This document shows positions 12,406 through 43,807 of a stretch of DNA of 43,807 nt, piece after piece. Numbering within the stretch: the first letter of the stretch is position 1; every line of letters starts with the position of its first letter. The notes under the pieces are model-generated. The model made no database searches, was not told the origin of the DNA, and was given only the letters and a program-made list of their open reading frames with translations. The stretch is taken from positions 454,762-498,568 of IMG/VR virus record IMGVR_UViG_3300020429_000529, one strand, 5' to 3'. The stretch is from a virus. The position numbers and the translations under genes were made by a program.

Positions 12406-13470
12406 AGATTGGCCCAACAGCAATGGGAAAGCCAATCGACATACGCAGAGATCCGAACCTGCTTGCAGAAAGGATCAAAGCTTCAAGATTCAGGTACGAA
12501 TAGATGGAAACATCTTCAAATACCTGAGTACGCCTCAGTTCGCTATGTCTCGTACATGACGGCTGAGCGAGCAAGAAACCGAAAGGGAAACTTGCTTGAG
12601 GCACACCAACTTGAGAGAGTTGGAAGCATGTGGCCGCTAACGGGCACTGACCGGCGACGGTCTGAGCAACGAGCGACAGTCATCCGAGCGAGGAAACTCG
12701 TTGGGATGGCTTTCACCAAGGCTTGTCAGTTCAACCTTCATGGTGACATAGAAGAACTGACCTCTGACTGGTCCCGGTCAGCCAAAAGGGACAGGCATGT
12801 TGGCATACCTGAGTATGTCCTACCGCCTCGTTCCAGACGCGTGGGTCGTCTGTTCGCCCTCTGCACGTTCTTCGAACCTGCATGGTGACAACGGCTTGAA
12901 AATATGGCTCATGGTCGAGTCAAACACGGTCCCTTGGTTCAGGCTTAACGGGTAGGCCTCAAACGGCCAACAGTCTGCGTCAGCGTTAAAAGCGTAACGC
13001 AGGCTTTCCCAATACCTTGCCAAGCTCTCAAAGAGGGAGGGCAGCAAGGCTCTGGCTGCTCACGGCTAAACCAAGAGTGAGAGGCAGTTCATGCCTTCAT
13101 AAGACTCGGCGGCCTTCCTTCGATGCCTGGTAAACATCGATGAGCGGAGGATGCCTGTGTCAATGTAGAAATGGGCTACAGAGGTCCGGGTGAGAAACCC
13201 GGCCCTTCTGTTTTCCGCAGTCGAATGCGCAATACCTGATCTCTGCCGCCCTTGGAAAAGGCACGATCAACGCAGAAGGATGGGCGCTTCGACGGTCGAG
13301 ATCAGTTCGGCGAATGTTCTGCAGAACTCGTCGGGCACGGAGATGTGACGGCTTCAATCCGTCATGGCGAGTTTCGATTCTCGTCCTCGGTTTTCCTCAG
13401 CGGCGGGCGTCGATGGCTACGGCGCAGCAGAGACTCAAGCCCCTTGTCTTCGGACGAGGGGCTTTTTTCG
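12406..13470 (+). ncRNA. about 1 kb region with poor coding potential, ending in a strong terminator. Candidate long structured RNA or regulatory region.
   Basis: The only long ORF, 12409-12888, lacks the GC3 bias seen in every accepted gene. Hairpins are present, for example GATTGGC...GCCAATC at 12406-12437. Terminator at 13438-13468. Confidence 0.3.
13438..13468 (+). terminator. rho-independent terminator
   Basis: GCCCCTTGTC, TTCG loop, GACGAGGGGC, then TTTTTTCG. Confidence 0.8.
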
Positions 13471-13508
13471 TGCGCTGCCACTGACCTCTACCTGCTGAAA
13501 TCTTGGTC

Positions 13509-13796
13509 ATGGCAACCAAACAAGCAACGCTGCATGCAGCGAAGAGAATCGTGATCGACTGCGAACGGAACGATGATGTTGACATCCGTTGCGGCGGTCC
13601 TGCTGTCCTTGGCTTCGATTTCCTCGTCCCCTTCGAGGAGAAGACGCCTGACCTGCGCAAGTGGCTTCAGGCAACGCTCAGCAAGCACGATCGCCCTGTC
13701 ATGAGCATCTCGATCAGCCGCTCAAAGGAATGGGTCGTCAAGGGTCGTCTCTGGGGCAAGCGCCGTATGGAGGCTTGCATCAAGAGCGGCTATTGA
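13509..13796 (+). CDS. hypothetical protein (95 aa)
   Basis: CCACTGAC, then 23 nt, then ATGGCAACC. Confidence 0.55.
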   Translation: MATKQATLHAAKRIVIDCERNDDVDIRCGGPAVLGFDFLVPFEEKTPDLRKWLQATLSKHDRPVMSISISRSKEWVVKGRLWGKRRMEACIKSGY

Positions 13797-13898
13797 CAGG
13801 AGCCCTCAGAGCGGCTATTCTCGGGTAGCCACTGACGGACCAGCCGTCAGATCGTTAGAGTCATCTCGCACCGCCAAACCCAAACAAAGGAGAACCCA

Positions 13899-14534
13899 AT
13901 GGCGAGCAAATCCAAGTCCAAGTCGTCCGCCGCTGCCACGCTGACCGCCCCCAAGGGCTCGGTCCACAATGTCGTCGAGTTCAGCGACGACTCGAAGACC
14001 GATGTGTTCGATCTCGTCGCGTCGTACAACCCCAAGAAGGACGGCTCCTGGCAGGAGTTCATCAAGTCCGATCGGGTCCGCGAGGCGCTGGGCCGCAAGC
14101 TGCTCATCAACGAGACGGGTCTGTCGGTCCCGCTCGACGGCAAGGTTGCCGATGCCGCTGCCGCTCTGTCGGGCGTCGTTACGGTCTGGGGCGGTATCTC
14201 CCAGAACTGGGAGGCGACCAGCGCCTACGGCAACCAGCACTACACCGCTCAGGGGCCGATGCACTTCAACGGCGTCGATCGCCTCTCGACCGATGCGCTC
14301 ATGCTCAACGCCGCCATGTTCATCGAGGTCATCGCCCAGCGCGCCGGGCTCAAGGCCCTCTCGCCCGATGATCCGAACTTCGCTCAGGCGCAGGCGGCTC
14401 TCTCGGCTCTCCGCCAGTTCGCTCAGAACCGCCCCGGCGAGATCAAGGACGCCAAGAAGGCGCAGATGTACGCTGCGGTCGGCAAGGGCGATGAGGCCGA
14501 GGTCGTCAGCAAGGCCGATACCGCCGCTGCCTGA
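13899..14534 (+). CDS. Ala-rich hypothetical protein (211 aa), probably highly expressed
   Basis: Strong AAAGGAGA Shine-Dalgarno site 7 nt upstream. Very strong GC3 bias. A terminator hairpin follows. Confidence 0.75.
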   Translation: MASKSKSKSSAAATLTAPKGSVHNVVEFSDDSKTDVFDLVASYNPKKDGSWQEFIKSDRVREALGRKLLINETGLSVPLDGKVADAAAALSGVVTVWGGISQNWEATSAYGNQHYTAQGPMHFNGVDRLSTDALMLNAAMFIEVIAQRAGLKALSPDDPNFAQAQAALSALRQFAQNRPGEIKDAKKAQMYAAVGKGDEAEVVSKADTAAA

Positions 14535-14679
14535 TCCATCGGGCACCTGAGAACCCCCAAGGCCGCTCGTCCGCTCTGCGGGCGGGCGGTCGTTTTCGTG
14601 ACTCTCTAAATCTACAATGTGACAACCGGACGATGTATCATTAGATGCAGTTGGGTCTGAGCTACAGGAGAGTCAAGCC

Positions 14680-14916
14680 ATGACCAATGAAAGTCCTCAA
14701 TCATGGGCCGATGCGATGAGCAGCATCCCCGCCCTCAACGCCGATGTCGTCTTCATTCAGACGGCGATGGACAGTCTCATCCGCGATCGCAGTCCTGCGC
14801 CTGGCGATACTGCCGCGCTCGATAAGGTCGCCGATGATGCTGTCTACCTGTCGAACAGGATCTTCGAGCGACTGCAAGCGCAGTTGGAAGAGCCTACGGC
14901 TGCCATCGAAAGCTGA
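14680..14916 (+). CDS. hypothetical protein (78 aa)
   Basis: Shine-Dalgarno site AGGAGAG. Confidence 0.55.
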   Translation: MTNESPQSWADAMSSIPALNADVVFIQTAMDSLIRDRSPAPGDTAALDKVADDAVYLSNRIFERLQAQLEEPTAAIES

Positions 14917-14975
14917 TTTGGGATTGGGGGAAGGGAGCATGAGCGGTTGCGTTTGCGCCGCTCTGTTCCCGTGCG

Positions 14976-14987
14976 CAAAGATAGGTG
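14976..14987 (+). promoter_or_regulatory. CAAAGATAGGTG 12-mer, copy 3
   Basis: Exact 12-mer, 7 nt upstream of ATG 14995. Confidence 0.6.
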
Positions 14988-14994
14988 GAGAACT

Positions 14995-15720
14995 ATGTCA
15001 TTCATCGAAGTCCAAGACGGCGTTGCACTGATCGATGCGAACCAATGGGTCCGCATCAAAGCCATAGGCGAAACAGAGAGCCCCAACATCAGAGGCGGCA
15101 CTGTTATCTTCTATGGCGCTGAGCAGAAGAAGGTCATCGACGAGCCATCCCGACTGAAGGATCGAACCGAGTTCGCAGATCCTCCTCTGGATCCTGCTGC
15201 ATGGGACGACTTCATCAACGGTCGCATTACTGAGTCCGTCTGGCGAGATCGTCAGCGTGCTTTTGGCGACAGCAACGGCTTCGGCTACATCCTTGACGGC
15301 ATCGGCGGCAACAAGGTCTTCGAGACTGACCGAGATCGCTACGACCGCCTGTACGCTCAGTATGGTCCCGACGACATGCCTCGGCACACCTATTGGACGA
15401 CAGAACGTTCTCATTACGAGCCGTCGCATTTTGATTGGCAAGGAGTTCCAACAAACAATGGCGGTAACTGGCATACTCTACCTGGCAATATCATCGAGAT
15501 GGATCTGAAGCCTGAAGTTAACTACGAGGTACAAGTCATCCGTCCTGATGTTCCTGCTAATGAGACGTATCTGATTCTCGGAGGGGCCGTCGAGGAGCCG
15601 CAGGCACCTTCAAGGAATCCGGAGTTCGGCGCTGCTCGGCTCCATGATCCGATCTTCAGTACGCCAGCGGGCAAGTTCGGCAGGCCGCTCGCCACTGACG
15701 ATTCGCAGGACGATTCGTAG
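14995..15720 (+). CDS. hypothetical protein (241 aa)
   Basis: Start at ATGTCATTC, immediately after CAAAGATAGGTGGAGAACT. GGTGGAG serves as the Shine-Dalgarno site. Confidence 0.6.
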   Translation: MSFIEVQDGVALIDANQWVRIKAIGETESPNIRGGTVIFYGAEQKKVIDEPSRLKDRTEFADPPLDPAAWDDFINGRITESVWRDRQRAFGDSNGFGYILDGIGGNKVFETDRDRYDRLYAQYGPDDMPRHTYWTTERSHYEPSHFDWQGVPTNNGGNWHTLPGNIIEMDLKPEVNYEVQVIRPDVPANETYLILGGAVEEPQAPSRNPEFGAARLHDPIFSTPAGKFGRPLATDDSQDDS

Positions 15721-15792
15721 GGGTACTTGCAGGTGCCGCTCGAAAGCGGTACGATGCGGAAGAAGTCCGACAACCCTTACGGAGAAACAGCC

Positions 15793-16245
15793 ATGAGCGA
15801 CGGCGAAGCCACCAGCACCACCCCCAAAACCAAGCGCAAGTCCATCGAGGTTCCGCAGTTCGACAGCGCCGACGCGCTGATGACGCTCGTCCAGGGCCAT
15901 CGTACCGCCACCGCCGACGACAACGCCCGCCAGTTCACCGGCGAGGGCTTCAAGTCCGCTGGCGGCATCGACAGCCTCCCCCTCAACACGAGGGCTCTCA
16001 TGGCGGCTTCGCTCGTCATGTCGATCGCCAACGACGCCCAGGGCGACGGCGACGAGGGCAAGGCGGCGACCGCTGTTCTCGGCATTCTGACGCCGTTCGT
16101 CGGCGACGCGCAGACCCATGCGACCGAGGCGGCGAAGCTCAGCGCCTACGAGCAGATCGCTGCCCTCGAAGGCATCGACGCTCGCAAGGCCGACGAGACT
16201 TCGGCGCAGTTCATCGCTCGCGTCAAGAAGGCCACGAAGGGCTAA
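15793..16245 (+). CDS. hypothetical protein (150 aa)
   Basis: GGAGAAACAGCC then ATG. A terminator lies downstream at 16290-16328. Confidence 0.6.
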   Translation: MSDGEATSTTPKTKRKSIEVPQFDSADALMTLVQGHRTATADDNARQFTGEGFKSAGGIDSLPLNTRALMAASLVMSIANDAQGDGDEGKAATAVLGILTPFVGDAQTHATEAAKLSAYEQIAALEGIDARKADETSAQFIARVKKATKG

Positions 16246-16328: not shown

Positions 16329-16383
16329 TCGCCACTGACAATTCGAACCTGCCGCTACGCTGTACCTCAAACAGGAGACAGCC

Positions 16384-16590
16384 ATGAGCTTCGGAACCCC
16401 TCCCGAGAACCCGCCCAATAGCACGGCGGTCTGCATTGATGTTCCGCAGGAAATGACCCCCGAACAGCAGCGGGATTTCGCTCAGCGGATGAGCCGAGCC
16501 GCCCGAGAGATGGGCTTCGATGGCGCTCAGGCGATATGGGTGCAGTCATACGGCGACCGCTTCGGCGATCCCGTCTTCTACATCCCATGA
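16384..16590 (+). CDS. hypothetical protein (68 aa)
   Basis: Shine-Dalgarno site CAGGAGACA. The stop TGA lies inside CCACTGAC. Confidence 0.55.
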   Translation: MSFGTPPENPPNSTAVCIDVPQEMTPEQQRDFAQRMSRAAREMGFDGAQAIWVQSYGDRFGDPVFYIP

Positions 16591-16622
16591 CCCACTGACA
16601 TCAGAACAAGGATGTAAGAACC

Positions 16623-16901
16623 ATGTGCGAAGGCAATTACAAGATCAAGTTCCGTTGTCCCGACGAGACATGCGGCGGAGAAGTTCTCGAAGAGGTTATG
16701 GTTGACGTTACTCAGTCGTCCAACCTCAACGAGATCACGGATGAGGGCGACATCGAGTATGGCGATACGAGCGCCGATGGCGGAGTCGTAGATCGTTACC
16801 AGTGCATGCGCTGCGGCAAGGTGGTTCCGCTCGGCGATGATCCTCAGCCCGATGACCTGTTCGCCTGGCTTCGCGACAACAACATGTTGGAGCAGGCATG
16901 A
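16623..16901 (+). CDS. zinc-ribbon protein (92 aa)
   Basis: CPDETCGG...CMRCG. CACTGAC, then 23 nt, then ATG. Confidence 0.55.
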   Translation: MCEGNYKIKFRCPDETCGGEVLEEVMVDVTQSSNLNEITDEGDIEYGDTSADGGVVDRYQCMRCGKVVPLGDDPQPDDLFAWLRDNNMLEQA

Positions 16902-17224
16902 TGATGGGCATGTCCATGTCGATGCAGATGCTCTGCACGGTCTGTCAGCAGCCTATTACGGGCCCTGACGCCGATCAGAACGCTGTCCATGTTGCGCTCG
17001 TTGGAGCGTGTCACAAGAACTCATCGGCTTGCTGCAAATGCCATCAACCTGTAGGCGTTGAGAGTCAGACCTCCGCCTACAAGCGGCGCTGGCGCGACTA
17101 CATGAAGCTGTTTGCTGCTCGTCGGCTGAGAGAGATCGCCGATGCGGGCACTGACATGACGAGTTTGCATCTTGAGGAACTGAGAACGATCGCCAACTTC
17201 CTTGATGGAGGCTCGCAGCTATGA
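16898..17224 (+). CDS. Cys-rich hypothetical protein (108 aa)
   Basis: ATGA overlap with the upstream gene. Contains CTVCQQ...CCKCHQ. Confidence 0.5.
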   Translation: MMMGMSMSMQMLCTVCQQPITGPDADQNAVHVALVGACHKNSSACCKCHQPVGVESQTSAYKRRWRDYMKLFAARRLREIADAGTDMTSLHLEELRTIANFLDGGSQL

Positions 17225-17696: not shown

Positions 17697-17740
17697 CACT
17701 GACGATCCGGCGACGGGTCAGAAGCGAAGGAGCAACAACT

Positions 17741-18391
17741 ATGGACGACTCAGGTCAAACCCAACTCGCAGACGGAACCACTCGCATCCAGTTCGTGCCG
17801 ACGCATCAGCAGTTGACCAAGATCGCTGATGACATGGCGGGCCTTGTTGATACCTACAGTCACAATGCGCCCGAAATCGACGCAAATCTCGGCAGCGACA
17901 GGTTCAGAAGGCGAGCGAGAGAACTCGAACTTGATATCGAGCAGCTTCGGCTCATCGCCGCCAAGCTCGAACGAGAGCCTGATCCTGGCGTTCTGGCTGA
18001 TCGCATCTACAACTGGCTCAAGGACTGGGTGACCGCAACTTTCGCGGGCAAGGACATGACCAAGAGCGGTCCCTTCCTGACGCCTGGCTTCGTCCACAAC
18101 GCCATCCTCGACATCCTGACCGATCAGTACCGCCATCTCGACTCTGTTCAGCGAGAAGCGATCACCGACATGACGGCGCAAGTCATGGTCGCCCGAGGCA
18201 ACGATAATGTCACGCTGCTTACGGGCACCGGCCCCGCGAGGGCGTTGATGGTTCGAGAGGGTTGGTCGATTGCGCAGATGCTCGAATACTGCGGCTTCGA
18301 CGAGGGCAACCTTCGTCAGCGGCTCGACTTCGATCCCGACACCGGCGGAGATTGGTACACTGACGATGACGACGAGGCAGAGAGCGAATGA
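17741..18391 (+). CDS. hypothetical protein (216 aa)
   Basis: GAAGGAGC Shine-Dalgarno site. The start was moved in from the ORF-track TTG. Confidence 0.6.
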   Translation: MDDSGQTQLADGTTRIQFVPTHQQLTKIADDMAGLVDTYSHNAPEIDANLGSDRFRRRARELELDIEQLRLIAAKLEREPDPGVLADRIYNWLKDWVTATFAGKDMTKSGPFLTPGFVHNAILDILTDQYRHLDSVQREAITDMTAQVMVARGNDNVTLLTGTGPARALMVREGWSIAQMLEYCGFDEGNLRQRLDFDPDTGGDWYTDDDDEAESE

Positions 18392-18840
18392 GAATCATCA
18401 CCGTCAACGACATGACCTTCGAGAACGCCGGCGACGTTCGCATCGACGTTCGGATCGAGGGCATCGGCTCTCTCCTTGTCAACTGCACGAGCGAGGGCGT
18501 CATCATCGACGCTTTCGGCGAGGACGGAGAGCAGATCGGGACATCTTCTGAGATGTTCGACGAGATCCATGAGCGGCTCCGCCTCAAAGAGGCTCGCTTC
18601 GCAGCGGCAGCGCAGATCAACGCCGCCATCGACGAGCTTCCCCAAAGCCGACAGGCTGAGATCCAAGCTGTCCTGGACGAACTGACCGACGACATGAAGG
18701 GCAGCGAGCGAGCGGACCTCAACAACGGCGCTGGCGTCGAGCAGATCGAATACCTGCTGACGAGCCATGCTGATGTTGAGCAGGCGGTCGCTTCGTTGAA
18801 GAATGACCTCGAAAACAATGGCGTTGGACTCGGGCACTGA
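18388..18840 (+). CDS. hypothetical protein (150 aa)
   Basis: ATGA overlap with the upstream gene. Confidence 0.55.
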   Translation: MRIITVNDMTFENAGDVRIDVRIEGIGSLLVNCTSEGVIIDAFGEDGEQIGTSSEMFDEIHERLRLKEARFAAAAQINAAIDELPQSRQAEIQAVLDELTDDMKGSERADLNNGAGVEQIEYLLTSHADVEQAVASLKNDLENNGVGLGH

Positions 18841-18857
18841 CTGAGATCAAGGACGAC

Positions 18858-36600: not shown

Positions 36601-36645
36601 ACTCGCTTACCTGCTCCACTGACCTGTCTGCAAGGATGCAACAGC

Positions 36646-36858
36646 ATGAGCAACCGAATGGAACACATCAAATTCTTGCAACTCAAACCCGATGAGAATG
36701 GCATCATGGAAGTCCGTCCATTGTCAGTCCCTCACATGGCTGAAGTCATCCTCGACCGCAACGGGCGAGCCATCAAGAACCGCTTCGGCCCCTCGTACAC
36801 TCCGACCTGGCGAAACCTGTTCCGAGACCTGCGGACACTGATGCGCCGCAAGAAGTAG
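36646..36858 (+). CDS. hypothetical protein (70 aa)
   Basis: CAAAGATAGGTG, then CCACTGAC, then 22 nt, then ATGAGCAAC. Confidence 0.5.
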   Translation: MSNRMEHIKFLQLKPDENGIMEVRPLSVPHMAEVILDRNGRAIKNRFGPSYTPTWRNLFRDLRTLMRRKK

Positions 36859-36865
36859 CAACAGC

Positions 36866-37165
36866 ATGAGCAAGACCGAAGTACCCGTCAACGAACTCCT
36901 CGCCTCGATCCGCCCCCGAGATCGAGTCACCATCCTGAGGCCCAACGGCAAGGGTCGCGACGGCATCGAATGGAAGGAAGCGACTGGCCGCTGCGTCATC
37001 GCTCCCGGTCGCCATCAGTCCCACGCTACGCTCAACATGGGCGGACCTCATGGGACGCCTGGCATCGCCGATGCTCGCAACCTGGTTCGGGTCGGTCAGC
37101 GTATCGCTGTCTACGATGCCGAACAGGGACAGTACCGCTGCGACGAGAAACAGACTTGCGGGTGA
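36866..37165 (+). CDS. hypothetical protein (99 aa)
   Basis: ACACTGAT, then 23 nt, then ATGAGCAAG. Confidence 0.5.
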   Translation: MSKTEVPVNELLASIRPRDRVTILRPNGKGRDGIEWKEATGRCVIAPGRHQSHATLNMGGPHGTPGIADARNLVRVGQRIAVYDAEQGQYRCDEKQTCG

Positions 37166-37384
37166 CACTGACGACGCTACACTCGTAGCATCAGAGAAGG
37201 ACCGACGATCAGAGAACACCAACGGAGGACCGCCCCATGAAGCTGCGTTAGCCCACTGATTCAAGCCACGGCACTGAATGTCAACCTCAACCTCCAACAG
37301 CGCCACGAAGGAGGACCGAGACATGGGCAAACAACTGAGGGCTGGACCTCACTAAAAACCAGCGCCGAGTTGAGGCGAATGAAC

Positions 37385-37420
37385 ACTCAAGAGAAACTGC
37401 CCGCCCCTGAAACATGGGGC
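37385..37420 (+). terminator. rho-independent terminator
   Basis: GCCCGCCCCTGAAACATGGGGCGGGC followed by TTGTTTT. Confidence 0.7.
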
Positions 37421-37461
37421 GGGCTTGTTTTCCACTGACGCATAGCCGACCGAGCAACGGC

Positions 37462-37929
37462 ATGAGCAGCGAACATCAGTCAGCGACAGGCACAGCGACC
37501 CGCATCAAGAACGGGCGCTTCACGATCCACTCGAACCGTTCGGGCGAGCATCGTACCTTCCAGATCAAGACCGTCATCGGCGACAAGAAGAAGCCCAAGG
37601 ACGCATTCTGCAACAAGATGGCAGGCAATCGGATTGTCGGCCTCCTGACAGGCCCCGACAACGAGAGCAGCTATACCAACTTCGGATTCGTCAACGACGA
37701 CGGTATCCGTTGCTGGCGGGCGCACAGCGACAAGCGACCCCTCGCCGATATCCTCTGGCGCTTCGCCGTTGAGGGCGTTCACGACGCTGAGAGCGGGCGT
37801 ATCATGCTTGAGGGCGTAGATGGCTACATGCTCTGCGAGGGCAAGTGTATACGCTGCAATCGTACACTGACGACTCCCGAATCCATCGAAAGCGGCATCG
37901 GACCTGTTTGCGCCGGGAGGGCAACATGA
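37462..37929 (+). CDS. hypothetical protein with a C-terminal zinc-ribbon-like motif (155 aa)
   Basis: CEGKCIRCNRTL...GIGPVCAGR. Cassette start ATGAGCAGC. Confidence 0.55.
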   Translation: MSSEHQSATGTATRIKNGRFTIHSNRSGEHRTFQIKTVIGDKKKPKDAFCNKMAGNRIVGLLTGPDNESSYTNFGFVNDDGIRCWRAHSDKRPLADILWRFAVEGVHDAESGRIMLEGVDGYMLCEGKCIRCNRTLTTPESIESGIGPVCAGRAT

Positions 37930-38352: not shown

Positions 38353-38426
38353 GCCCCGGTAGCTCAACTGGATAGAGCGGCGGACTTCTAATCCGCAGGT
38401 TACAGGTTCGAATCCTGTCCGGGGTG
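38353..38426 (+). tRNA. tRNA-Arg (anticodon TCT)
   Basis: Clean class-I cloverleaf. The loop is CTTCTAA and the T-loop is TTCGAAT. The 1:72 pair is G:U. Confidence 0.75.
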
Positions 38427-38462
38427 TTTCGTTCACTGACCGATACCTGGTATCGTATCGGC

Positions 38463-38627
38463 ATGAGCAACCACAACAACCGTTTGAACCCGAAGCGCCA
38501 CCTCGATCCGCTCGACCTCGAAGCCGAGAAGGAAGGAGCAGCCATCCGCCGTCACAACGCCATCCGTCCGACCGTCAAGCGCAAGCCGAAGCGCGGCTCC
38601 TGCCACCAGACCAGGCACGCCGCCTGA
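38463..38627 (+). CDS. small basic protein (54 aa)
   Basis: Cassette start ATGAGCAAC. Lys/Arg-rich. Confidence 0.45.
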   Translation: MSNHNNRLNPKRHLDPLDLEAEKEGAAIRRHNAIRPTVKRKPKRGSCHQTRHAA

Positions 38628-38656: not shown

Positions 38657-38668
38657 CAAAGATAGGTG
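38657..38668 (+). promoter_or_regulatory. CAAAGATAGGTG 12-mer, copy 10
   Basis: Exact 12-mer, after a terminator hairpin. Confidence 0.6.
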
Positions 38669-38707
38669 CGACGTTTGCCACTGACTCCGTTGCGTCACCG
38701 CAGCGGC

Positions 38708-39031
38708 ATGAAAGCAATCGAAGTCAACGAAGAATTCCTTACCGCCGTCGCTGAACTGATCGTCGCTGACGAGAACAGAGCAGACACGAGCGGTCCCGCC
38801 CGAACCATCCGCGAGTACCTTGTCGATCGTCTGAATCGACCTGATCCGTTGGGTCATATCACGCCCGATCCCAAGATCAAGGAACGGCTCGAATATCTCC
38901 GAGGCGAACTGCGAGCCGAACGCATCAGCTACGGTGAACTCGCCGAACTCGCGGACCTTGCGCCGCATATCGACCCCTCCGATGTCGAACTGTTGGAAGC
39001 CGCAGGCGTACCCGAAGATTCGGCCCACTGA
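38708..39031 (+). CDS. hypothetical protein (107 aa)
   Basis: CAAAGATAGGTG, then CCACTGAC, then 22 nt, then ATGAAAGCA. Confidence 0.5.
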   Translation: MKAIEVNEEFLTAVAELIVADENRADTSGPARTIREYLVDRLNRPDPLGHITPDPKIKERLEYLRGELRAERISYGELAELADLAPHIDPSDVELLEAAGVPEDSAH

Positions 39032-39444: not shown

Positions 39445-39531
39445 TCCGTCAACCCATCAGAACCCCTCAACGGCTCCGCCTCATCGGGCGGGGCCGTTGT
39501 TTCACTGACTGAACCGAGCAGAGGCAGAGGC

Positions 39532-39861
39532 ATGAGCAACCAGACATACACCGCAGGCACAACTCCGCAGGAAACGATCAAGGCAGCCGCCGAGCAGCAG
39601 ACGCCCGATGGTTACAAGATCGCGTGCTGGCCGAACTCCGAGGAGTTTGACGCTTTGCAGCGCATGACGGCGCAGGGCATCGACAGCCGCCTCGAAGCGA
39701 TCCATTTCGAGCAGGAGACCGACAGCAGAGGAGCGCCGCAGTTTACTTTCGATCCTCAGTCCGTCAGCGTGCTTTGTCGCCGACTGGCCGAGTCCGAAAA
39801 CGATGCCGACCTCAGCCTCCGCATCGACATTCTCGGAACCTTGGGGATTGAGGAAGTCTAA
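39532..39861 (+). CDS. hypothetical protein (109 aa)
   Basis: Cassette start ATGAGCAAC. Confidence 0.55.
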   Translation: MSNQTYTAGTTPQETIKAAAEQQTPDGYKIACWPNSEEFDALQRMTAQGIDSRLEAIHFEQETDSRGAPQFTFDPQSVSVLCRRLAESENDADLSLRIDILGTLGIEEV

Positions 39862-39953: not shown

Positions 39954-40082
39954 ATGGAAACCCCGACCTACAGCCCGTCGCTGAACAGGTCTTGGAGGAA
40001 GCGCTTGAAACTCCCCTCACTGACCGAAGAGGATCGAAAGATCATCATACTGACAATCCTCGCATTCATCGCCCTTTGTTGA
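39954..40082 (+). CDS. possible small membrane peptide (42 aa). The frame is uncertain.
   Basis: The frame with METPTYS...IIILTILAFIALC has strong GC3. An alternative ATG at 39914 in another frame (MNERLAQLY...) loses its GC3 bias after about 40 codons. Confidence 0.25.
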   Translation: METPTYSPSLNRSWRKRLKLPSLTEEDRKIIILTILAFIALC

Positions 40083-40094
40083 ACGGAGCAAATC

Positions 40095-40433
40095 ATGCCA
40101 GCAGGCGGAAACGCATGGGATCAAGCGGCAGAGATGGTCGAAGCAGACTCCATCACCGCCGCTGCAACTGACAACCTGCAAACCATCATCGACAACGATC
40201 GCGAGCAGCTTTCCAACGCTGTCCAGATCGTCGGCAAGGCCACGACCCGCCTCGAAGCCGCAACGAACCTCCGAGAGCATTTCACGACCGTCCTCGACGA
40301 TCCCCGTCCCGAGGGCGGAGAGTCATTCGAGCGCCTCGCCGTCGTCGAACTGTTTACCGTCATGCTCGGCGCTGTCAACTGGTTCGTCCTTACCGATCAC
40401 TACATGGAGAAATGGAACGAGGGCGTGCGGTAG
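40095..40433 (+). CDS. hypothetical protein (112 aa)
   Basis: Shine-Dalgarno site AACGGAGCAAATC. Confidence 0.55.
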   Translation: MPAGGNAWDQAAEMVEADSITAAATDNLQTIIDNDREQLSNAVQIVGKATTRLEAATNLREHFTTVLDDPRPEGGESFERLAVVELFTVMLGAVNWFVLTDHYMEKWNEGVR

Positions 40434-40463
40434 TCACTGACAATCCATCGGGCTCGCATCAGC

Positions 40464-40781
40464 ATGAGCAGCACCCAGACATACGACCCGAGGAAGCCAG
40501 GCCGATCCATCCCGCCAGGTCACGAAGGATGGCGCATCGTCCATATCACCGTCCGCAAGGCGATGGACAATACCTACAGCCTTGAGATCGACGGCCCAGG
40601 CACTCGCAAGTCATTCCGCGAGGGATTCGAGAAGCCCGACCCCGAAGCCATGAAGCCGCATACGCCCGCCCACCTCCACGAGGCGCTCGAATCGGCTTGC
40701 TCGATGGTTGGAGACTACGCCGCTGTCCATAGCTGGGGAGACTACCACAAGACCTATCCCGCCCGTCGTCGTCGTCACTGA
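40464..40781 (+). CDS. hypothetical protein (105 aa)
   Basis: Cassette start ATGAGCAGC. Confidence 0.55.
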   Translation: MSSTQTYDPRKPGRSIPPGHEGWRIVHITVRKAMDNTYSLEIDGPGTRKSFREGFEKPDPEAMKPHTPAHLHEALESACSMVGDYAAVHSWGDYHKTYPARRRRH

Positions 40782-40804
40782 CGACCTGACGCGGTAGCAT
40801 CGGC

Positions 40805-41206
40805 ATGAGCAACAACCGCCGAATCAGCTTTGACCTTCCGACCACCACCGAGGGCGTCGTCATCGAAGTCGTCGCCCGATACACCAAGGGAGACCCGTAC
40901 AGCAGCGAGCAGCAAGGTTTCTGGATCGGCATGACGCCGGTCAAGGTTGAAGAGAACTGGCGGACCACCCGAGCATTCTCTGGCCTCAAGGCGTTTGATT
41001 CGACCGCAACCCGCTTCAGCGCCAAGAAGCTCGAAGCCGTCCGAGATAAGGTCCGCCATCAGATCATGAACGGCACCCCCACTGACCGCTACGCCATGAT
41101 GCTACAGCGAGTCGTCGAACAAGCGGGACTCAAGCTCGAACGAACCGTCCTCGCCGAGAAGCACGCCGAACGAGCCGCCGAAGTCGCCGAAGCCCTCGCA
41201 TCCTGA
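40805..41206 (+). CDS. hypothetical protein (133 aa)
   Basis: Cassette start ATGAGCAAC. A terminator follows. Confidence 0.55.
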   Translation: MSNNRRISFDLPTTTEGVVIEVVARYTKGDPYSSEQQGFWIGMTPVKVEENWRTTRAFSGLKAFDSTATRFSAKKLEAVRDKVRHQIMNGTPTDRYAMMLQRVVEQAGLKLERTVLAEKHAERAAEVAEALAS

Positions 41207-41239: not shown

Positions 41240-41251
41240 CAAAGATAGGTG
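41240..41251 (+). promoter_or_regulatory. CAAAGATAGGTG 12-mer, copy 11
   Basis: Exact 12-mer, after a terminator hairpin. Confidence 0.6.
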
Positions 41252-41291
41252 AGCCGCTTGCTCACTGACAACCTGGCGCTCCCGCAACCGC

Positions 41292-41549
41292 ATGAGCAAA
41301 CTCCCCAAACACCTCCGAGAGATGGACCCCGAGAACCTCGCGAAGCTCCAAACCGGCTTCGCCCGCTTCCGCTTCGGATTCGCTGAGCCCGGCGAGATCC
41401 AGAACGGCGCGGAGTTTGTGGGCAACTTCGGGCGCAAGAAGGATGCCGTCGCCGCTCGCGAAGCCTGCGATGGGACGATGAACCCCTATCTTCACGGTCG
41501 CCTGGCTACAGGTTGGTCCGTTTGGAAGAAGGCCCCACTGACGACCTGA
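41292..41549 (+). CDS. hypothetical protein (85 aa)
   Basis: Cassette start ATGAGCAAA. Confidence 0.5.
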   Translation: MSKLPKHLREMDPENLAKLQTGFARFRFGFAEPGEIQNGAEFVGNFGRKKDAVAAREACDGTMNPYLHGRLATGWSVWKKAPLTT

Positions 41550-41592
41550 CGGCGCAGCAACAGCGAGCAACCCAAGAGCAAGGGGAACCGAC

Positions 41593-41898
41593 ATGAGCGA
41601 CCGCAAGCGAATTCTGTGCATCACCAGCAACGGCGAGGAAGTCATCTTCGGAACGATTCGGTGGACCGATCATCCGAGCGATCCCGAGACCCGCGTCGCG
41701 TTCGTCCGCGATGAACAGGATCCCGATGATGAGATCCGCCTTGTGGACATGGATATCCTCGAAGTCAGCGATGCCCCCGATGAGGACGATGAGCCCTGGG
41801 ACGGCTTCCGACATGACGGCGAAGCCGACGCCGATGCCCTGGCTTCCGCTGGCTTTGGGACCGATGAGGACTACGGCGGCGACTGCGAACACCTCTAA
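41593..41898 (+). CDS. highly acidic protein (101 aa), possible DNA mimic
   Basis: Shine-Dalgarno site AAGGGGAA. The C-terminal half is about 35% Asp/Glu. Confidence 0.55.
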   Translation: MSDRKRILCITSNGEEVIFGTIRWTDHPSDPETRVAFVRDEQDPDDEIRLVDMDILEVSDAPDEDDEPWDGFRHDGEADADALASAGFGTDEDYGGDCEHL

Positions 41899-41940: not shown

Positions 41941-41952
41941 CAAAGATAGGTG
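41941..41952 (+). promoter_or_regulatory. CAAAGATAGGTG 12-mer, copy 12
   Basis: Exact 12-mer, after a terminator hairpin. Confidence 0.6.
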
Positions 41953-42046
41953 CCGTGCCCGCAGCACAACCTGCACCTGTAGCCACTGACCACAGAGGAG
42001 CCCGAGTAACTACGCAGAAGGTCTAAATATACAGGAGAAACAGACC

Positions 42047-42364
42047 ATGCGATTCGCAAGACTTGAAATTCTTGTCGGCATCCTCATCCTTACCCTTGTC
42101 CTCAGCCTCAGCATTCACCTGAATGTCGAGAACGGAGTGCAGGCAGCGGCGGCAACGAACCCCGCCACGAATCAGCCGAGCCTCGAAGAAATGAACGAGT
42201 ACGCCCGACGACTCGGCATGGAGCCGATCGAAAACCTCCCGTGGATCAACCCCGAGACGGGCCGCAACATCTACGAGGAGCGCCAGGAGGAACTCGATCA
42301 GATCGGACTCGAAGCGTACCGAGAGAAGTACGGCGTGACCCCCGAGATCGTTTACACTCACTGA
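42047..42364 (+). CDS. secreted or membrane-anchored protein (105 aa)
   Basis: Shine-Dalgarno site CAGGAGAAA. N-terminal hydrophobic helix. Confidence 0.6.
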   Translation: MRFARLEILVGILILTLVLSLSIHLNVENGVQAAAATNPATNQPSLEEMNEYARRLGMEPIENLPWINPETGRNIYEERQEELDQIGLEAYREKYGVTPEIVYTH

Positions 42365-42388
42365 CCTGCCCAAGCCTCAATTAGAGGC

Positions 42389-42580
42389 ATGAGCAGCGAC
42401 CAAGCCAAACTCGAACTCTTCCGACTCAAACAGCGGAGAGAGCGGATCATCCGCCGGTTCTGGTTCTCAGACCGAGGGCAGATGGTCTGCGAAAGCGACC
42501 AAGCCATCCGAGCCGTCGCCATGCTCAGCGTCCGCATACGGATGCTCACTGACCCCTCAGCCGTCAGCGTAGCGGCATGA
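42389..42580 (+). CDS. hypothetical protein (63 aa)
   Basis: Cassette start ATGAGCAGC. Confidence 0.45.
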   Translation: MSSDQAKLELFRLKQRRERIIRRFWFSDRGQMVCESDQAIRAVAMLSVRIRMLTDPSAVSVAA

Positions 42581-42735
42581 TGACGAGCAGCGACAGCCAA
42601 CGATTCGCAGTCTGCGAACGCAACGGAGACGGTTCCCTCACCGTCCTGTTCTACTGCGACACCATCCAAGTCAGCCATTGGCAGCGGCAAGGGTATCAGA
42701 TCCGAGAAGCCGCCAAGATGAGAGGCGCAGCATGA
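42577..42735 (+). CDS. small hypothetical protein (52 aa)
   Basis: ATGA overlap with the upstream gene. GC3 is strong. Not in the ORF track because it is under 60 aa. Confidence 0.4.
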   Translation: MMTSSDSQRFAVCERNGDGSLTVLFYCDTIQVSHWQRQGYQIREAAKMRGAA

Positions 42736-42881
42736 GCAGAGAAGACGACCGATTCTTCCCATGCAACGAGCGAGAAGCCGAGATCCTGCGAACCCTCAAG
42801 GGCGACGACCTGGAACGGTACAAGGAACTCAGGCACGGCGGCGCGACGGTCACTGAAGCCCTCGAAGCCGTACAGAAGTAA
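42732..42881 (+). CDS. small hypothetical protein (49 aa)
   Basis: ATGA overlap with the upstream gene. Confidence 0.4.
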   Translation: MSREDDRFFPCNEREAEILRTLKGDDLERYKELRHGGATVTEALEAVQK

Positions 42882-43183
42882 TGAGCAAGAAGCGCCAAAC
42901 CAAGCGGTGGAATCCTCGATTCCGGTTCTACGCCAGAACCCAAGGGCGAACCCCTCAGCAACAACTCGATCACGACCGAGAGGAATATCCGGGCGGCGCT
43001 ATGGTCGGCTTTATCTGCTGGCTCCGAGAGACCTACAGCAACTACGCCATGACTTGTCGGCTTGTGCATGTCCCGGGATTGCAAGGCGCTCCCGGATCAG
43101 GTTGGTCCTATCGAGAGACGAGCGAAGAAGGTTTCGCGGCATACCTAAGAAAGACCTACCCGAAGATTCGGATAGCATGGTAG
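42881..43183 (+). CDS. hypothetical protein (100 aa)
   Basis: TAATG overlap with the upstream gene. The start is ATGAGCAAG. Confidence 0.5.
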   Translation: MSKKRQTKRWNPRFRFYARTQGRTPQQQLDHDREEYPGGAMVGFICWLRETYSNYAMTCRLVHVPGLQGAPGSGWSYRETSEEGFAAYLRKTYPKIRIAW

Positions 43184-43192
43184 GAGATTCAA

Positions 43193-43402
43193 ATGAAACT
43201 GCGCCGACCCAAGTTCTATGAAGTTTGTTACATTATCGTTATCATTGTTTCAGCCGTTTCGGTACTGCTTAGCGTTCACACAATGGGATACAATCAGGGA
43301 TTCAGAGAGGCGTTTCTTCCTCGGCAAGAGAGACTATGGAACTCACTGACCTCAACCGATGCAGAACAACAGAATGAGCAAGACCCAAGTATCCTCGAAT
43401 AA
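43193..43402 (+). CDS. small membrane protein (69 aa)
   Basis: Shine-Dalgarno site GGTAGGAG. Local GC is lower. The protein has one transmembrane helix. The cassette for the next gene is embedded in its 3' end. Confidence 0.45.
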   Translation: MKLRRPKFYEVCYIIVIIVSAVSVLLSVHTMGYNQGFREAFLPRQERLWNSLTSTDAEQQNEQDPSILE

Positions 43403-43568
43403 GCTTCCCGCATTCCGAATTGTCTTCGATGACGGAGACATCATCGAAACAAGCATGGCCGCAGGTATCACCCTCGAACAGGCCAAAGCCTACTACATCG
43501 GGCAGCCGTTCGTGAAGGCCGATGAGCGGACATTCCGCCGAGGCGTCAGCGTCGAGCAAATCCACTGA
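43374..43568 (+). CDS. hypothetical protein (64 aa)
   Basis: CACTGAC, then 22 nt, then ATGAGCAAG. Confidence 0.5.
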   Translation: MSKTQVSSNKLPAFRIVFDDGDIIETSMAAGITLEQAKAYYIGQPFVKADERTFRRGVSVEQIH

Positions 43569-43591
43569 CCCCTCAGAGAGCAGGTAGGAAC

Positions 43592-43807
43592 ATGAGCAGC
43601 GCCCAAACCAACCGAATCGTCCAGACCGAGTACGGCCCCGTTGTCTGCGAAGCCAACCCCGAAGGGCTCGTCATGGTCCGCACGCCCGAAGCCCTCAACG
43701 GCAGAGGCACCGACCCCAAAGCCCTCGAACCCCTCGACGGAGGCGGACAACGCTACCGAATATCATTCTTTGTCAACGCCGACACCAATGAGATCGTCGG
43801 GCACCAC
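43592..43807 (+). CDS. hypothetical protein, 3' truncated by the window edge
   Basis: CCACTGAC, then 21 nt, then ATGAGCAGC. There is no stop before the window ends. Confidence 0.5.
   Translation, partial: MSSAQTNRIVQTEYGPVVCEANPEGLVMVRTPEALNGRGTDPKALEPLDGGGQRYRISFFVNADTNEIVGHH

Follow-up and report, generated by a model that had tools for sequence, protein, structure and literature searches.

A strand-specific CACTGAC word at the gene starts of a marine phage-like replicon, best explained as a promoter or regulatory cassette of unusual geometry

Introduction

The closest documented analogues of the element described here appear to be the short-word promoters of jumbo-phage polymerases. In PhiKZ, the middle promoters carry TACT centered 22 nucleotides (nt) upstream of the transcription start, and in AR9, the late promoters carry AACA-N6-TA/G; the leaders in both phages measure at least 26 nt, and leaderless mRNAs were not detected (PMC8244752, PMC5312081). 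Here, we describe the heptamer CACTGAC, which recurs at a fixed distance upstream of start codons in a 43,807-nt stretch (the window) of the viral record IMGVR_UViG_3300020429_000529 (positions 454,762 to 498,568). The window is part of a 498,610-bp contig (ENA ERZ17089788 NODE_1289088) that is present in many marine samples.

The middle promoters of T4 offer a second comparison: a phage box recognized by MotA replaces the -35 element near -30 in ~60 promoters, which often lie downstream of early promoters and need an excellent sigma70 -10 (TAtaaT) 12 +/- 1 bp from the box (PMC2988021). The closest architectural analogue is probably the PeSL cassette of T4-like phages, in which modules of a terminator hairpin and a promoter lie between small variable ORFans in plastic regions (PMC2839356, PMC4122927). 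Huge phages are known almost only from metagenomes, and the control of their gene expression is largely obscure.

Leaderless mRNAs, as in lambda cI, mycobacteria, Deinococcus-Thermus, and haloarchaea, begin with a 5'-terminal AUG, lack a Shine-Dalgarno (SD) site, and have their promoter at a fixed distance; in bacterial leaderless genes, the fixed element is the sigma -10 at -12 to -7. Exact short words also mark gene starts in other viruses, including the mimivirus early-promoter octamer AAAATTGA, found before nearly half of the genes, the poxvirus late TAAATG, an initiator fused to the start codon, and the SAS of cluster K mycobacteriophages, a conserved oriented word just upstream of many gene starts.

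Results and Discussion

A single-strand word upstream of gene starts

CACTGAC occurs 72 times on the + strand of the window and never on the - strand, a frequency that dinucleotide shuffles of the window do not reproduce (mean, 5.7; maximum, 11) and that exceeds the 45 or more copies reported in a first-pass annotation of this DNA. Variants at position 7 are likewise confined to the + strand (CACTGAT, 14:0; CACTGAA, 8:0; CACTGAG, 4:0), which gives a strand ratio of 98:0 for the hexamer CACTGA. Ten of the CACTGAC copies lie left of position 13470 (the left arm) and 62 in 13470-43807. Past the window end, the public contig holds 5 more, in an array that ends ~1.36 kb beyond; the 7 kb after the array end contain no copy, and the genes there lie on both strands.

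Half of the copies (36/72) are intergenic, 18 fall within the final 30 nt of the upstream gene, and 7 supply its TGA stop, as at 33879-33881, the stop of gene 33669-33881. The other 11 lie deeper inside a gene, 6 of them at most 93 nt before the next start. In total, 67 of the 72 copies precede a gene start or transcription unit by no more than 93 nt, and 5 are orphans. A copy inside an upstream coding sequence, which the first-pass annotation had placed at 32953-32959, is indeed there but 6 nt further on, at 32959-32965. Doubling of the word had been described as frequent, which overstates it (CTGACCACTGAC occurs 5 times and CACTGACGACCTGAC twice).

The complement of the word core is scarce on the + strand, with 24 copies of AGTG against ~160 expected from base composition and 2 of CAGTG against ~47. 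Inside genes, synonymous-codon shuffles that kept protein and codon usage fixed gave 38.4 +/- 3.7 copies of AGTG (observed, 15) and 10.7 +/- 1.9 of CAGTG (observed, 2; minimum, 6 in 200 shuffles). The significance lies at these two words; depletion of TCAGTG alone was not significant after the codon control (0 versus 2.2). We take the scarcity to mean that antisense copies of the CACT(G) core are avoided beyond codon usage, which would point to ongoing selection on the word. Since antisense copies would be neutral if the word mattered in mRNA only, such avoidance is what an orientation-dependent signal on DNA, for instance a promoter, would be expected to cause.

A rigid distance to ATG and two classes of gene start

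We define a cassette as CACTGAC followed by 22 or 23 nt and an ATG that opens an open reading frame (ORF). There are 43 cassettes (22 nt in 27 copies and 23 nt in 16), compared with ~2.75 phased ATGs expected (binomial P ~4e-42) and with about 35 in the first-pass annotation. The histogram of distances from the word to downstream ATGs shows one sharp peak, at 22-23 nt, and the ORFs opened by the 43 phased ATGs have 52-241 codons. Anchored on the ATG, the consensus reads C(-30) CACTGAC(-29..-23) N8 G(-14) N5 G(-8)C(-7)A(-6) nn R(-3) G(-2) C(-1) ATG AGC AAC, with C at -1 in 40/43 cassettes and A at +1. G residues at -14, -8, -2, and +4 form a 6-nt GCA period, and from +3 to +25, A and C are abundant and G and T scarce. 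No conservation was seen at -35 to -30 in the 43 cassettes.

The second codon is AGC in 27/43 cassette genes; all 27 second-codon serines use AGC, versus 39% of internal serines. An all-versus-all BLASTP search of the cassette proteins returned one weak pair only, and a homolog search with a cassette gene matched nothing beyond itself. Because the proteins are unrelated and their second-codon serines are exclusively AGC, the shared Met-Ser-Asn, Met-Ser-Lys, and Met-Ser-Ser ends are a nucleotide-level feature, as had been proposed.

Most cassette genes lack an SD site, which confirms another early observation. Hybridization to the anti-SD sequence averaged -4.5 kcal/mol for cassette genes (n = 43; 28% at -6 or below, that is, still with some SD-like match), -7.2 kcal/mol for genes with the word further upstream (n = 18; 72%), -7.4 kcal/mol for genes without the word (n = 20; 75%), and -2.8 kcal/mol for random positions (n = 2000; 14%). 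The difference between cassette genes and all other genes is significant (Mann-Whitney p = 2e-6), and the noncassette genes carry ordinary SDs such as AAGGAG and GGAGA.

The distance from word to ATG is bimodal. It is 22-23 nt for the 43 cassette genes, 24 nt for one gene, and 34-93 nt for 18 copies, which mostly precede SD-led genes (the leader class); none of the 72 copies in the window has a gene start 25-33 nt downstream. In the two shortest leaders, AGGAGCAGAACC (35489-35500) and GAAGGAGCAACAACT (17726-17740), the SD begins at word+23 or one base later. Three copies (35460, 37166, and 41536) show the start-proximal consensus at the usual offset in sequences that have no ATG there, namely, gcatcggc/A, gcatcag/A, and gcaacagc/GAGCAAC (the slash marks the offset). 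The word had been described as placed relative to the ATG; the rigid 22/23-nt distance holds, but the constant in these sequences appears to be the distance from the word to position +23 rather than to the ATG. A fixed transcription start at word+23 would account for the two arrangements seen, no leader at all or one with room for an SD.

Terminators, a second motif, and sigma70-like promoters

Strong hairpins resembling intrinsic terminators directly precede the cassettes at 13479, 37433, and 39503 (Table 1). A second word, motif 2 (CAAAGATAGGTG; exact word), has 12 copies in the window, all on the + strand, compared with ~1 expected. It sits 7-32 nt before CACTGAC in 10 of the 12 copies, usually after a hairpin or tRNA, and its flanks are not conserved. 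In nine further cassettes, a hairpin is followed by motif 2 and then by CACTGAC. Modules of a hairpin, with or without motif 2, and CACTGAC lie at 13437, 27450, 28640, 31080, 32260, 34419, 36550, 37399, 38630, 39478, 41200, and 41900. Motif 2 is conserved across relatives of 40-58% GC (L095 4452/5068/5323/5343, L096 4829/6089, L097 3307/8079, L103 4872, L126 2873, and L151 801) and may belong to promoters of a second class. There is a loose likeness to TAGGTGA within the SP6 promoter and to AGGTGA, the extended SD complement.

At the left-arm positions 1193 and 2720 and in the promoter spacer at 9371-9399, the first-pass coordinates were correct. CACTGAC lies 9-21 nt after good sigma70-like promoters at 1144-1172, 2682-2709, and 13793-13821. 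The left-arm copies had been read as elements of 5' untranslated regions; they read better as parts of tandem promoters, a sigma70-like one followed by one of the putative CACTGAC type.

Conservation in related replicons

Homologs of a 519-amino-acid GHKL-ATPase-like protein (HATPase; 3846-5405) occur at syntenic loci, with identities of 30-53%. Several of these are on contigs of 465-506 kb and thus define a family of ~0.5-Mb replicons; the convergence of independent assemblies of diverged members on ~0.5 Mb suggests that these are complete replicons. The only close relatives retrieved were near-identical over the cassette block. The comparisons below concern diverged members, designated by locus numbers, and orthologous cassettes were compared among the genes of these retrieved loci. 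Two family members lie in bins of metagenome-assembled genomes, a distant one in a Saccharibacteria genome and another in a Rhodobacter genome. In L095, an IS605 OrfB/Cas12f-like TnpB gene (1281-2435) is located just upstream of the syntenic Fic-AAA_25-ATPase block.

An unbiased heptamer search in L095 returned CACTGAT as the top word (13 versus 1.1 expected). CACTGA is enriched and biased toward the + strand in every relative with a HATPase identity of at least 40%, irrespective of GC content (40-58%), with strand ratios of 26:1, 14:0, 21:0, 21:3, and 20:6; the enrichment is absent in relatives with an identity of 38% or below. L097 has the canonical CACTGAC-22 nt-ATG and L095 a tgcCACTGAT-23..26 nt-ATG form, and the pooled relatives yielded 20 distinct cassette-type starts at +22 to +24, ~3x the number at control spacers. 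A pair of orthologs in L102 and L123, 32% identical to each other, shows CACTGAA-23 nt-ATGGCAAAAC in both loci, and the two spacers are entirely dissimilar. The HATPase gene itself keeps the word, with a leader that ranges from 0 nt (L095) to ~23-24 nt with an SD (window, L097, and L103).

The relatives also carry clusters of tagCACTGAW and, in noncoding DNA, tandem arrays of the word. In L096, four copies lie at an exact 21-nt period (15059-15128); in L097, three 47-nt repeats (808-950) each contain the palindrome ACTGAaTCAGT (ACTGAATCAGT); further tandem arrays are found in L123 (5689-5745) and L093 (3892-3960), and 12-nt and 23-nt repeats also occur among the arrays. To judge from their layout, these arrays look like clustered protein-binding sites (operators or iterons).

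A candidate promoter class

We lean toward the reading that CACTGAC is a family-specific promoter word at -29 to -23, with transcription starting at the A of the ATG and leaderless mRNAs as the main products. CACTGAC (CACTGAN in relatives) would serve as the upstream recognition word in promoters confined to these ~0.5-Mb marine phage-like replicons, read on double-stranded DNA in one orientation by a dedicated protein; candidate kinds of reader include a phage-encoded or phage-modified RNA polymerase, a sigma-like subunit, and an activator. Transcription would start 23 (+/-1) bp past the last base of the word, with a pyrimidine at -1 and A at +1. For ~43-46 genes, this start would coincide with the first base of the ATG. 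The strict spacing of 22/23 nt and the missing SD sites would follow from this, and the C(-1)/A(+1) context, together with an unstructured coding start rich in A and C, would be in keeping with it. For ~18 other genes, it would open a leader of 12-86 nt, mostly with a normal SD, and in one case (37166), an ORF-less unit. The block GCA-nnR-GC/ATGAGCAAC (-8 to +9) would comprise the start site and the initially transcribed region and may also provide a favorable 5' end for leaderless translation. Hairpins, motif 2, and cassettes would then form terminator-promoter modules between small ORFan genes, spanning a ~45-kb, one-strand block of early or anti-defense type. The gene content (tiny ORFans, DUF3085, DUF6876, DUF6011, Fic, ankyrin, and tRNA arrays) would fit an early or take-over region.

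Of the functions offered in the first-pass annotation, a phage-specific promoter with a fixed start-codon offset, or a leaderless determinant, is favored by the bimodal distances, the cassettes after terminators, the antisense avoidance, and the 21-nt arrays. Its statement that no canonical -10 or -35 fits also stands; the sigma70 -10 pattern TAnnnT occurs at the proper place in 2/43 cassettes, a background-level frequency (background, 2.3%), and a host sigma70 promoter was rejected on this ground. In the AT-richer relatives, a few suggestive cases of a sigma70 -10 in L095 were lost on counting.

Several observations weigh against this promoter. The cassettes contain no recognizable melting element, since the -10 is missing and the region from -12 to -7 is not AT-rich, and a word at -29 to -23 (center, -26) with no -10 matches the geometry of no known bacterial sigma or holoenzyme. 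Pfam and PHROG scans of ~45 proteins from the window and its 10-kb flanks revealed no polymerase, sigma, or DNA-binding candidate. The conservation from +1 to +9 could equally reflect selection on translation; 6 cassette genes overlap the upstream stop (ATGA), for which coupled translation without a promoter of their own is conceivable; and tandem arrays such as those in the relatives are commoner for regulator sites than for promoters. PhiKZ and AR9 do without leaderless mRNAs (PMC8244752, PMC5312081), and the transcription start proposed here is read from the sequence. Furthermore, the ~60 kb read contains no hallmark phage gene, and relatives are lacking in the phage databases: megablast and tblastn searches of INPHARED returned nothing but tRNA matches, and no relatives of the HATPase were found in IMG/VR.

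It is nevertheless plausible that the replicon is a phage, for which 13 or more tRNAs, the ORFan density, the one-strand packing, and some PHROG hits speak. A search of PLSDB gave weak N-terminal matches only, and a scan of IMG/VR with the cassette pattern gave 83 single hits, about the chance number and thus uninformative. There was no evidence of identity with the Mar_Mega megaphage family. An archaeal or halophilic host, considered for the -26 geometry, was rejected, as the proteome shows no acidic bias (D+E, 14%; K+R, 12%) and the genome has SDs and intrinsic terminators.

On balance, the pattern is best explained, as far as sequence can tell, by a phage-specific promoter or regulatory cassette of unusual geometry, most of whose controlled genes would be leaderless. 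The word, its phasing and strand bias, the SD dichotomy, the conservation in relatives, and the antisense avoidance are observed; the action on DNA as a promoter, the start position, leaderless translation, and the temporal class are inferred. This reading is also compatible with a variant in which novel phage machinery with a TATA-box-like geometry starts on the start codon and produces leaderless mRNAs en masse in a bacterium. By itself, the signature outlines a candidate regulon, ~65 transcription units within 45 kb, and it predicts transcript 5' ends to the nucleotide and mostly leaderless mRNAs in a host that otherwise uses SD sites. If the reading is true, the word at -26 without a -10 would represent a new promoter geometry for a bacterial virus, and a jumbo or mega phage would for the first time be seen to depend on leaderless expression for an entire class of genes. 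The presence of the word in relatives above the HATPase identity threshold and its absence below it provide a handle for finding the reader protein by phylogenetic profiling, and the word can serve as a simple marker for fragments of this widespread marine replicon family.

Comparison with known promoters

Like the promoters read by the multisubunit RNA polymerases of PhiKZ and AR9, CACTGAC would be a private short word at a fixed start distance without sigma70 -35/-10 elements, and it stands before many genes, sometimes in apparent tandem with a second promoter class. Unlike them, it is GC-rich and centered at about -26, has a second conserved block at -8 to +9, and is predicted to yield mostly leaderless transcripts. 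As a phage-specific box at -29 to -23, assuming a start at the A of the ATG, it would recall the MotA box of T4 but lies 3-6 bp nearer the start and lacks the -10; no MotA or AsiA homolog was seen in the window, and a MotA-type middle promoter was rejected because its required -10 is missing from the cassettes. With PeSL, the window shares ~13 hairpin(-motif 2)-CACTGAC modules between ORFans, whereas PeSL comprise ordinary sigma70 early promoters and SD-led genes, in contrast to the noncanonical word and SD-less genes described here.

Bacterial leaderless genes (a mycobacterial case is cited in PMC8244752) differ in that the word here lies at -29 to -23, where archaeal TATA/BRE elements are located, in a genome with bacterial-type SDs and intrinsic terminators. 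The mimivirus and poxvirus signals belong to eukaryotic viruses with other transcription machinery and are AT-rich words, in mimivirus at a variable distance of 40-60 nt, and SAS is 3-8 nt from the start and contains the SD, whereas CACTGAC is 22-23 nt away from genes without one. Hand comparison with sigma54, ECF, and T7-like consensus geometries revealed none that fits; the T7-like promoter is a contiguous block of ~23 bp (-17 to +6), and the cassette is bipartite, with a 7-8-bp word, 14 unconserved bp, and the block from -8 to +9.

Alternative explanations

A tentative alternative, which we regard as possible but unlikely, keeps the word on DNA and moves the start. CACTGAC would bind a phage repressor or activator, or would be a -10-like element in the manner of T4 late promoters, and transcription would begin, e.g., 6-8 nt after the word, giving a uniform SD-less leader of ~15-22 nt instead of leaderless mRNAs. 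The 21-nt-phased arrays and palindromic versions in relatives are typical of operators, as is a position shortly after sigma70-like -10 boxes, which the left-arm copies occupy; two sigma70-like promoters (9371-9399 and L097 7270) overlap the word, and no -10 lies between word and ATG. If the word were a regulator site, however, the rest of the cassette is too weakly conserved to be the promoter proper, and a leader containing the spacer should bear an SD like other genes, whereas cassette genes are SD-poor. The empty zone at 25-33 nt and the SDs located exactly at word+23 would also be left unexplained.

We give a rather low probability to a signal acting in translation, in which CACUGAC, 22-23 nt before the AUG, would be bound by a phage factor or modified ribosome and replace the SD. 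Specifically, CACUGAC-N22-AUG(AGCAAC) would be a private SD-independent route of ribosome recruitment in ~0.5-Mb phages, via a phage ribosomal protein or initiation factor, an idea we doubt to the same degree. The rigid distance to AUG, the restriction of the word to the sense strand, the SD-poor cassette genes, and the occurrence of cassettes inside operon-like runs, overlapping upstream coding sequence, are all consistent with such a route, as is nucleotide conservation through AUGAGCAAC with its 6-nt GCA periodicity at -8, -2, and +4. Several points speak against it: ~18 well-placed copies lie 34-93 nt from SD-led starts, where the signal would be useless; among orthologs, the word persists at differing distances from the ATG; an ORF-less unit begins with one copy; and cassettes directly follow terminators. 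Antisense copies are counterselected even though the antisense strand should not be read as mRNA, and phased tandem arrays occur in noncoding DNA of relatives. When the RNA of the 43 cassettes was folded, no fold was shared (mean z, -0.12); structure and wobble-type covariation are absent, and an Rfam scan matched only tRNAs. Pairing of CUGA with UCRG near the AUG was also considered and found no support.

The same absence of conserved RNA structure bears on the RNA processing site or ribosome-loading signal suggested by the first-pass annotation, for which we found nothing specific in support. A phage or host endoribonuclease that cuts polycistronic RNA at CACUGAC into monocistronic units with uniform 5' ends is very unlikely, in our view, because terminators precede many copies and leave no precursor to cut; it would account for a sense-strand word at gene boundaries, including left-arm copies within predicted 5' untranslated regions of sigma70-like promoters, but not for the exact 22/23-nt distance or the split between SD-led and SD-poor genes, and neither the arrays in relatives nor the antisense avoidance would follow from it.

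Strand-biased words also arise for reasons unrelated to expression, such as Chi-like sequences, strand-specific nick sites (T5 and tf/LUZ24 type), and one-orientation Type III restriction sites. The exact short word, the perfect strand bias, and the high density are reminiscent of these, and the tf/LUZ24-type nick consensus TACT/RTGMC loosely resembles CACTGAC; yet none predicts the phasing to start codons, the concentration of copies just upstream of gene starts, or the linked start-proximal consensus, and we consider this explanation highly improbable. Finally, the notion that the cassettes are functionless remains of a repeatedly duplicated ancestral gene start, to which the shared sequence from -30 to +9 and the shared Met-Ser-Asn N termini might point, is effectively refuted by the conservation of word and distance between orthologs at 32% identity and across 40-58% GC, and it also sits poorly with unrelated proteins and spacers and with the ongoing selection indicated by antisense avoidance.

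Feature coordinates and neighboring genes

The coordinates of the cassettes, leader-class and other copies, terminators, and motif 2 are listed in Table 1.

Table 1. Copies of CACTGAC and associated features in the window
Feature	Positions	Strand	Word, spacing, and start	Gene or context
Leader class	1194-1280	+	Predicted start 1223; 55-nt SD leader	Gene start 1278; sigma70-like TTGACG-17-TAGACT 1144-1172 upstream
Leader class	2721-2838	+	Predicted start 2750; 86-nt SD leader	Gene start 2836; sigma70-like TTGACT-16-TATCCT 2682-2709 upstream
Motif 2	3590-3599	+	(C)AAAGATAGGTG	
Terminator-like hairpin + T run	3640-3675	+		
Leader class	3794-3848	+	Predicted start 3823; 23-nt leader, SD-like AAAGGA	Gene start 3846 (HATPase); orthologs in relatives keep the word
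Cassette	6154-6192	+	CACTGAC-23 nt-ATGGAAGCT	6184-6366
Cassette	7634-7672	+	CACTGAC-23 nt-ATGGCGATC	7664-8065
Motif 2	9347-9356	+	(C)AAAGATAGGTG	5 nt after tRNA-Leu(taa)
24-nt-spaced start	9377-9416	+	CACTGAC-24 nt-ATG	9408-9800; word in spacer of sigma70-like TTGCGT-17-TATACT (9371-9399)
Orphan intragenic copy	10788-10794	+		No start nearby
Copy near sigma70-like promoter	11782-11788	+		Just upstream of TTGAAG-17-TATACT (11791-11819); no ORF assigned
Copy in tRNA-like gene	12331-12337	+		Inside insertion of 12240-12405
Copy in ORF-poor region	12645-12651	+		Region 12400-13440
Terminator-like hairpin + T run	13437-13464	+		Strong; 14 nt before cassette 13479
Cassette	13479-13517	+	CACTGAC-23 nt-ATGGCAACC	13509-13796
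Leader class	13830-13901	+	Predicted start 13859; 40-nt SD leader	Gene start 13899; sigma70-like TTGACA-17-TATTCT 13793-13821 upstream
Terminator-like hairpin + T run	14561-14591	+		
Motif 2	14978-14987	+	(C)AAAGATAGGTG	7 nt before ATG 14995
Leader class	15693-15795	+	Predicted start 15722; 71-nt SD leader	Gene start 15793
Leader class, after hairpin + T run	16333-16386	+	Predicted start 16362; 22-nt SD leader	Gene start 16384
Cassette	16593-16631	+	CACTGAC-23 nt-ATGTGCGAA	16623-16901
Leader class	17149-17223	+	Predicted start 17178; 43-nt SD leader	Gene start 17221
Leader class	17697-17743	+	Predicted start 17726; 15-nt leader GAAGGAGCAACAACT, SD at 5' end	Gene start 17741
Cassette	18358-18396	+	CACTGAC-23 nt-ATGAGAATC	18388-18840
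Cassette	18835-18872	+	CACTGAC-22 nt-ATGAACGAC	18864-19589; word TGA is upstream stop
Cassette	19580-19617	+	CACTGAC-22 nt-ATGAGCCGA	19609-20202
Cassette	20192-20229	+	CACTGAC-22 nt-ATGGCAAAC	20221-20523
Cassette	21724-21761	+	CACTGAC-22 nt-ATGACTCTT	21753-21932
Orphan intragenic copy	22140-22146	+		No start nearby
Leader class	22677-22733	+	Predicted start 22706; 25-nt SD leader	Gene start 22731
Cassette	23251-23289	+	CACTGAC-23 nt-ATGATCGAA	23281-23652
Cassette	24169-24207	+	CACTGAC-23 nt-ATGACCACA	24199-24744
Leader class	24659-24747	+	Predicted start 24688; 57-nt leader, weak SD	Gene start 24745
Orphan intragenic copy	24810-24816	+		No start nearby
Cassette	24981-25019	+	CACTGAC-23 nt-ATGCCCTGT	25011-25517
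Leader class	25415-25470	+	Predicted start 25444; 24-nt leader without SD (-2.2 kcal/mol)	Putative gene start 25468
Cassette	26570-26608	+	CACTGAC-23 nt-ATGAGCCAC	26600-26929
Motif 2	27485-27494	+	(C)AAAGATAGGTG	
Cassette	27518-27555	+	CACTGAC-22 nt-ATGAGCAAC	27547-27819
Leader class	27821-27875	+	Predicted start 27850; 23-nt SD leader	Gene start 27873
Copy at gene end	28574-28580	+	No start at +23	End of gene 27873-28595, then hairpin
Motif 2	28671-28680	+	(C)AAAGATAGGTG	
Cassette	28692-28729	+	CACTGAC-22 nt-ATGAGCAAA	28721-28921
Leader class	29359-29451	+	Predicted start 29388; 61-nt leader, weak SD	Gene start 29449
Cassette	29794-29832	+	CACTGAC-23 nt-ATGAGCGGA	29824-29982
Cassette	29977-30014	+	CACTGAC-22 nt-ATGCCGATG	30006-30278; word TGA is upstream stop
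Cassette	30280-30317	+	CACTGAC-22 nt-ATGAGCGAA	30309-30797
Cassette	30799-30836	+	CACTGAC-22 nt-ATGAGCCAA	30828-31058
Motif 2	31118-31127	+	(C)AAAGATAGGTG	
Cassette	31135-31172	+	CACTGAC-22 nt-ATGAGCAAT	31164-31505
Cassette	31507-31544	+	CACTGAC-22 nt-ATGAGCAAC	31536-32234
Motif 2	32295-32304	+	(C)AAAGATAGGTG	
Cassette	32314-32351	+	CACTGAC-22 nt-ATGAGCGAA	32343-32537
Cassette	32959-32996	+	CACTGAC-22 nt-ATGAGCAAA	32988-33365 (DUF3085); word inside upstream coding sequence
Cassette	33360-33397	+	CACTGAC-22 nt-ATGAGCAAC	33389-33652; word TGA is upstream stop
Cassette	33640-33677	+	CACTGAC-22 nt-ATGAATGTC	33669-33881
Cassette	33876-33913	+	CACTGAC-22 nt-ATGAGCAAT	33905-34339 (DUF6876); word TGA is upstream stop
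Orphan intragenic copy	34234-34240	+		No start nearby
Motif 2	34447-34456	+	(C)AAAGATAGGTG	
Cassette	34466-34504	+	CACTGAC-23 nt-ATGGCAACC	34496-34888; AAGGAG also in spacer
Cassette	34890-34927	+	CACTGAC-22 nt-ATGAGCAAC	34919-35161
Cassette	35163-35200	+	CACTGAC-22 nt-ATGAGCAAC	35192-35476
Leader class	35460-35503	+	CACTGAC-22 nt (gcatcggc end); 12-nt leader AGGAGCAGAACC; SD at predicted +1 (35489)	Gene start 35501
Cassette	35845-35883	+	CACTGAC-23 nt-ATGAGCAAG	35875-36261
Cassette	36228-36266	+	CACTGAC-23 nt-ATGAGCATG	36258-36530
Motif 2	36591-36600	+	(C)AAAGATAGGTG	
Cassette	36617-36654	+	CACTGAC-22 nt-ATGAGCAAC	36646-36858
Variant cassette	36836-36874	+	CACTGAT-23 nt-ATGAGCAAG	36866-37165
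ORF-less unit (~235 nt)	37166-37432	+	CACTGAC + 22 nt (gcatcag end)	Two SD-led micro-ORFs; terminator 37399-37424
Terminator	37399-37424	+		Directly before cassette 37433
Cassette directly 3' of terminator	37433-37470	+	CACTGAC-22 nt-ATGAGCAGC	37462-37929 (DUF6011)
Leader class	37865-37928	+	Predicted start 37894; 32-nt SD leader	Gene start 37926
Cassette 8 nt after tRNA-Arg	38434-38471	+	CACTGAC-22 nt-ATGAGCAAC	38463-38627
Motif 2	38659-38668	+	(C)AAAGATAGGTG	
Cassette	38679-38716	+	CACTGAC-22 nt-ATGAAAGCA	38708-39031
Terminator-like hairpin + T run	39478-39494	+		8 nt before cassette 39503
Cassette	39503-39540	+	CACTGAC-22 nt-ATGAGCAAC	39532-39861
Leader class	40018-40097	+	Predicted start 40047; 48-nt leader, weak SD	Gene start 40095
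Cassette	40435-40472	+	CACTGAC-22 nt-ATGAGCAGC	40464-40781
Cassette	40776-40813	+	CACTGAC-22 nt-ATGAGCAAC	40805-41206; word TGA is upstream stop
Orphan intragenic copy	41080-41086	+		No start nearby
Motif 2	41242-41251	+	(C)AAAGATAGGTG	
Cassette	41263-41300	+	CACTGAC-22 nt-ATGAGCAAA	41292-41549
Leader class	41536-41595	+	CACTGAC-22 nt (gcaacagc end), GAGCAACCC..., no ATG there; 28-nt SD leader	Gene start 41593
Motif 2	41943-41952	+	(C)AAAGATAGGTG	
Leader class	41984-42049	+	Predicted start 42013; 34-nt SD leader	Gene start 42047
Cassette	42359-42397	+	CACTGAC-23 nt-ATGAGCAGC	42389-42580; word TGA is upstream stop
Cassette	42547-42585	+	CACTGAC-23 nt-ATGATGACG	42577-42735
Variant cassette	42851-42889	+	CACTGAA-23 nt-ATGAGCAAG	42881-43183
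Cassette	43344-43382	+	CACTGAC-23 nt-ATGAGCAAG	43374-43568
Cassette	43563-43600	+	CACTGAC-22 nt-ATGAGCAGC	43592 to past window end; word TGA is upstream stop

The micro-ORFs of the unit at 37166-37432, MKLR* and MGKQLRAGPH*, are strongly SD-led; the terminator has a 9-bp GC stem, and the fold has a z of -1.9. This may be a small RNA or micro-peptide unit.

The window contains 13 tRNA genes, in two arrays (8338-9342 and 11115-11708) and at 38353-38426, including six tRNA-Leu genes with five different anticodons. A sigma70-like promoter (8133-8161) precedes the first array, and the tRNA at 11300-11371 was seen by Rfam and not by ARAGORN. Two tandem tRNA-like genes of ~165 nt each, with large internal insertions, follow at 12065-12232 and 12240-12405. 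With introns allowed, ARAGORN called the first a tRNA-Leu(AAG) whose anticodon loop holds a 73-nt intron; the second was not called but has a matching acceptor stem and T-arm. The next ~1 kb (12400-13440) has no convincing ORF and ends in the strong terminator at 13437-13464; an Rfam E-value scan of this region found nothing, and it could be a novel noncoding RNA region.

The GC skew is positive in the left arm (1-13400) and slightly negative from ~12-14 kb on, and the AT skew climbs to ~+0.2 toward the right end of the window. The shift occurs where larger conserved genes give way to the densely packed small cassette genes.

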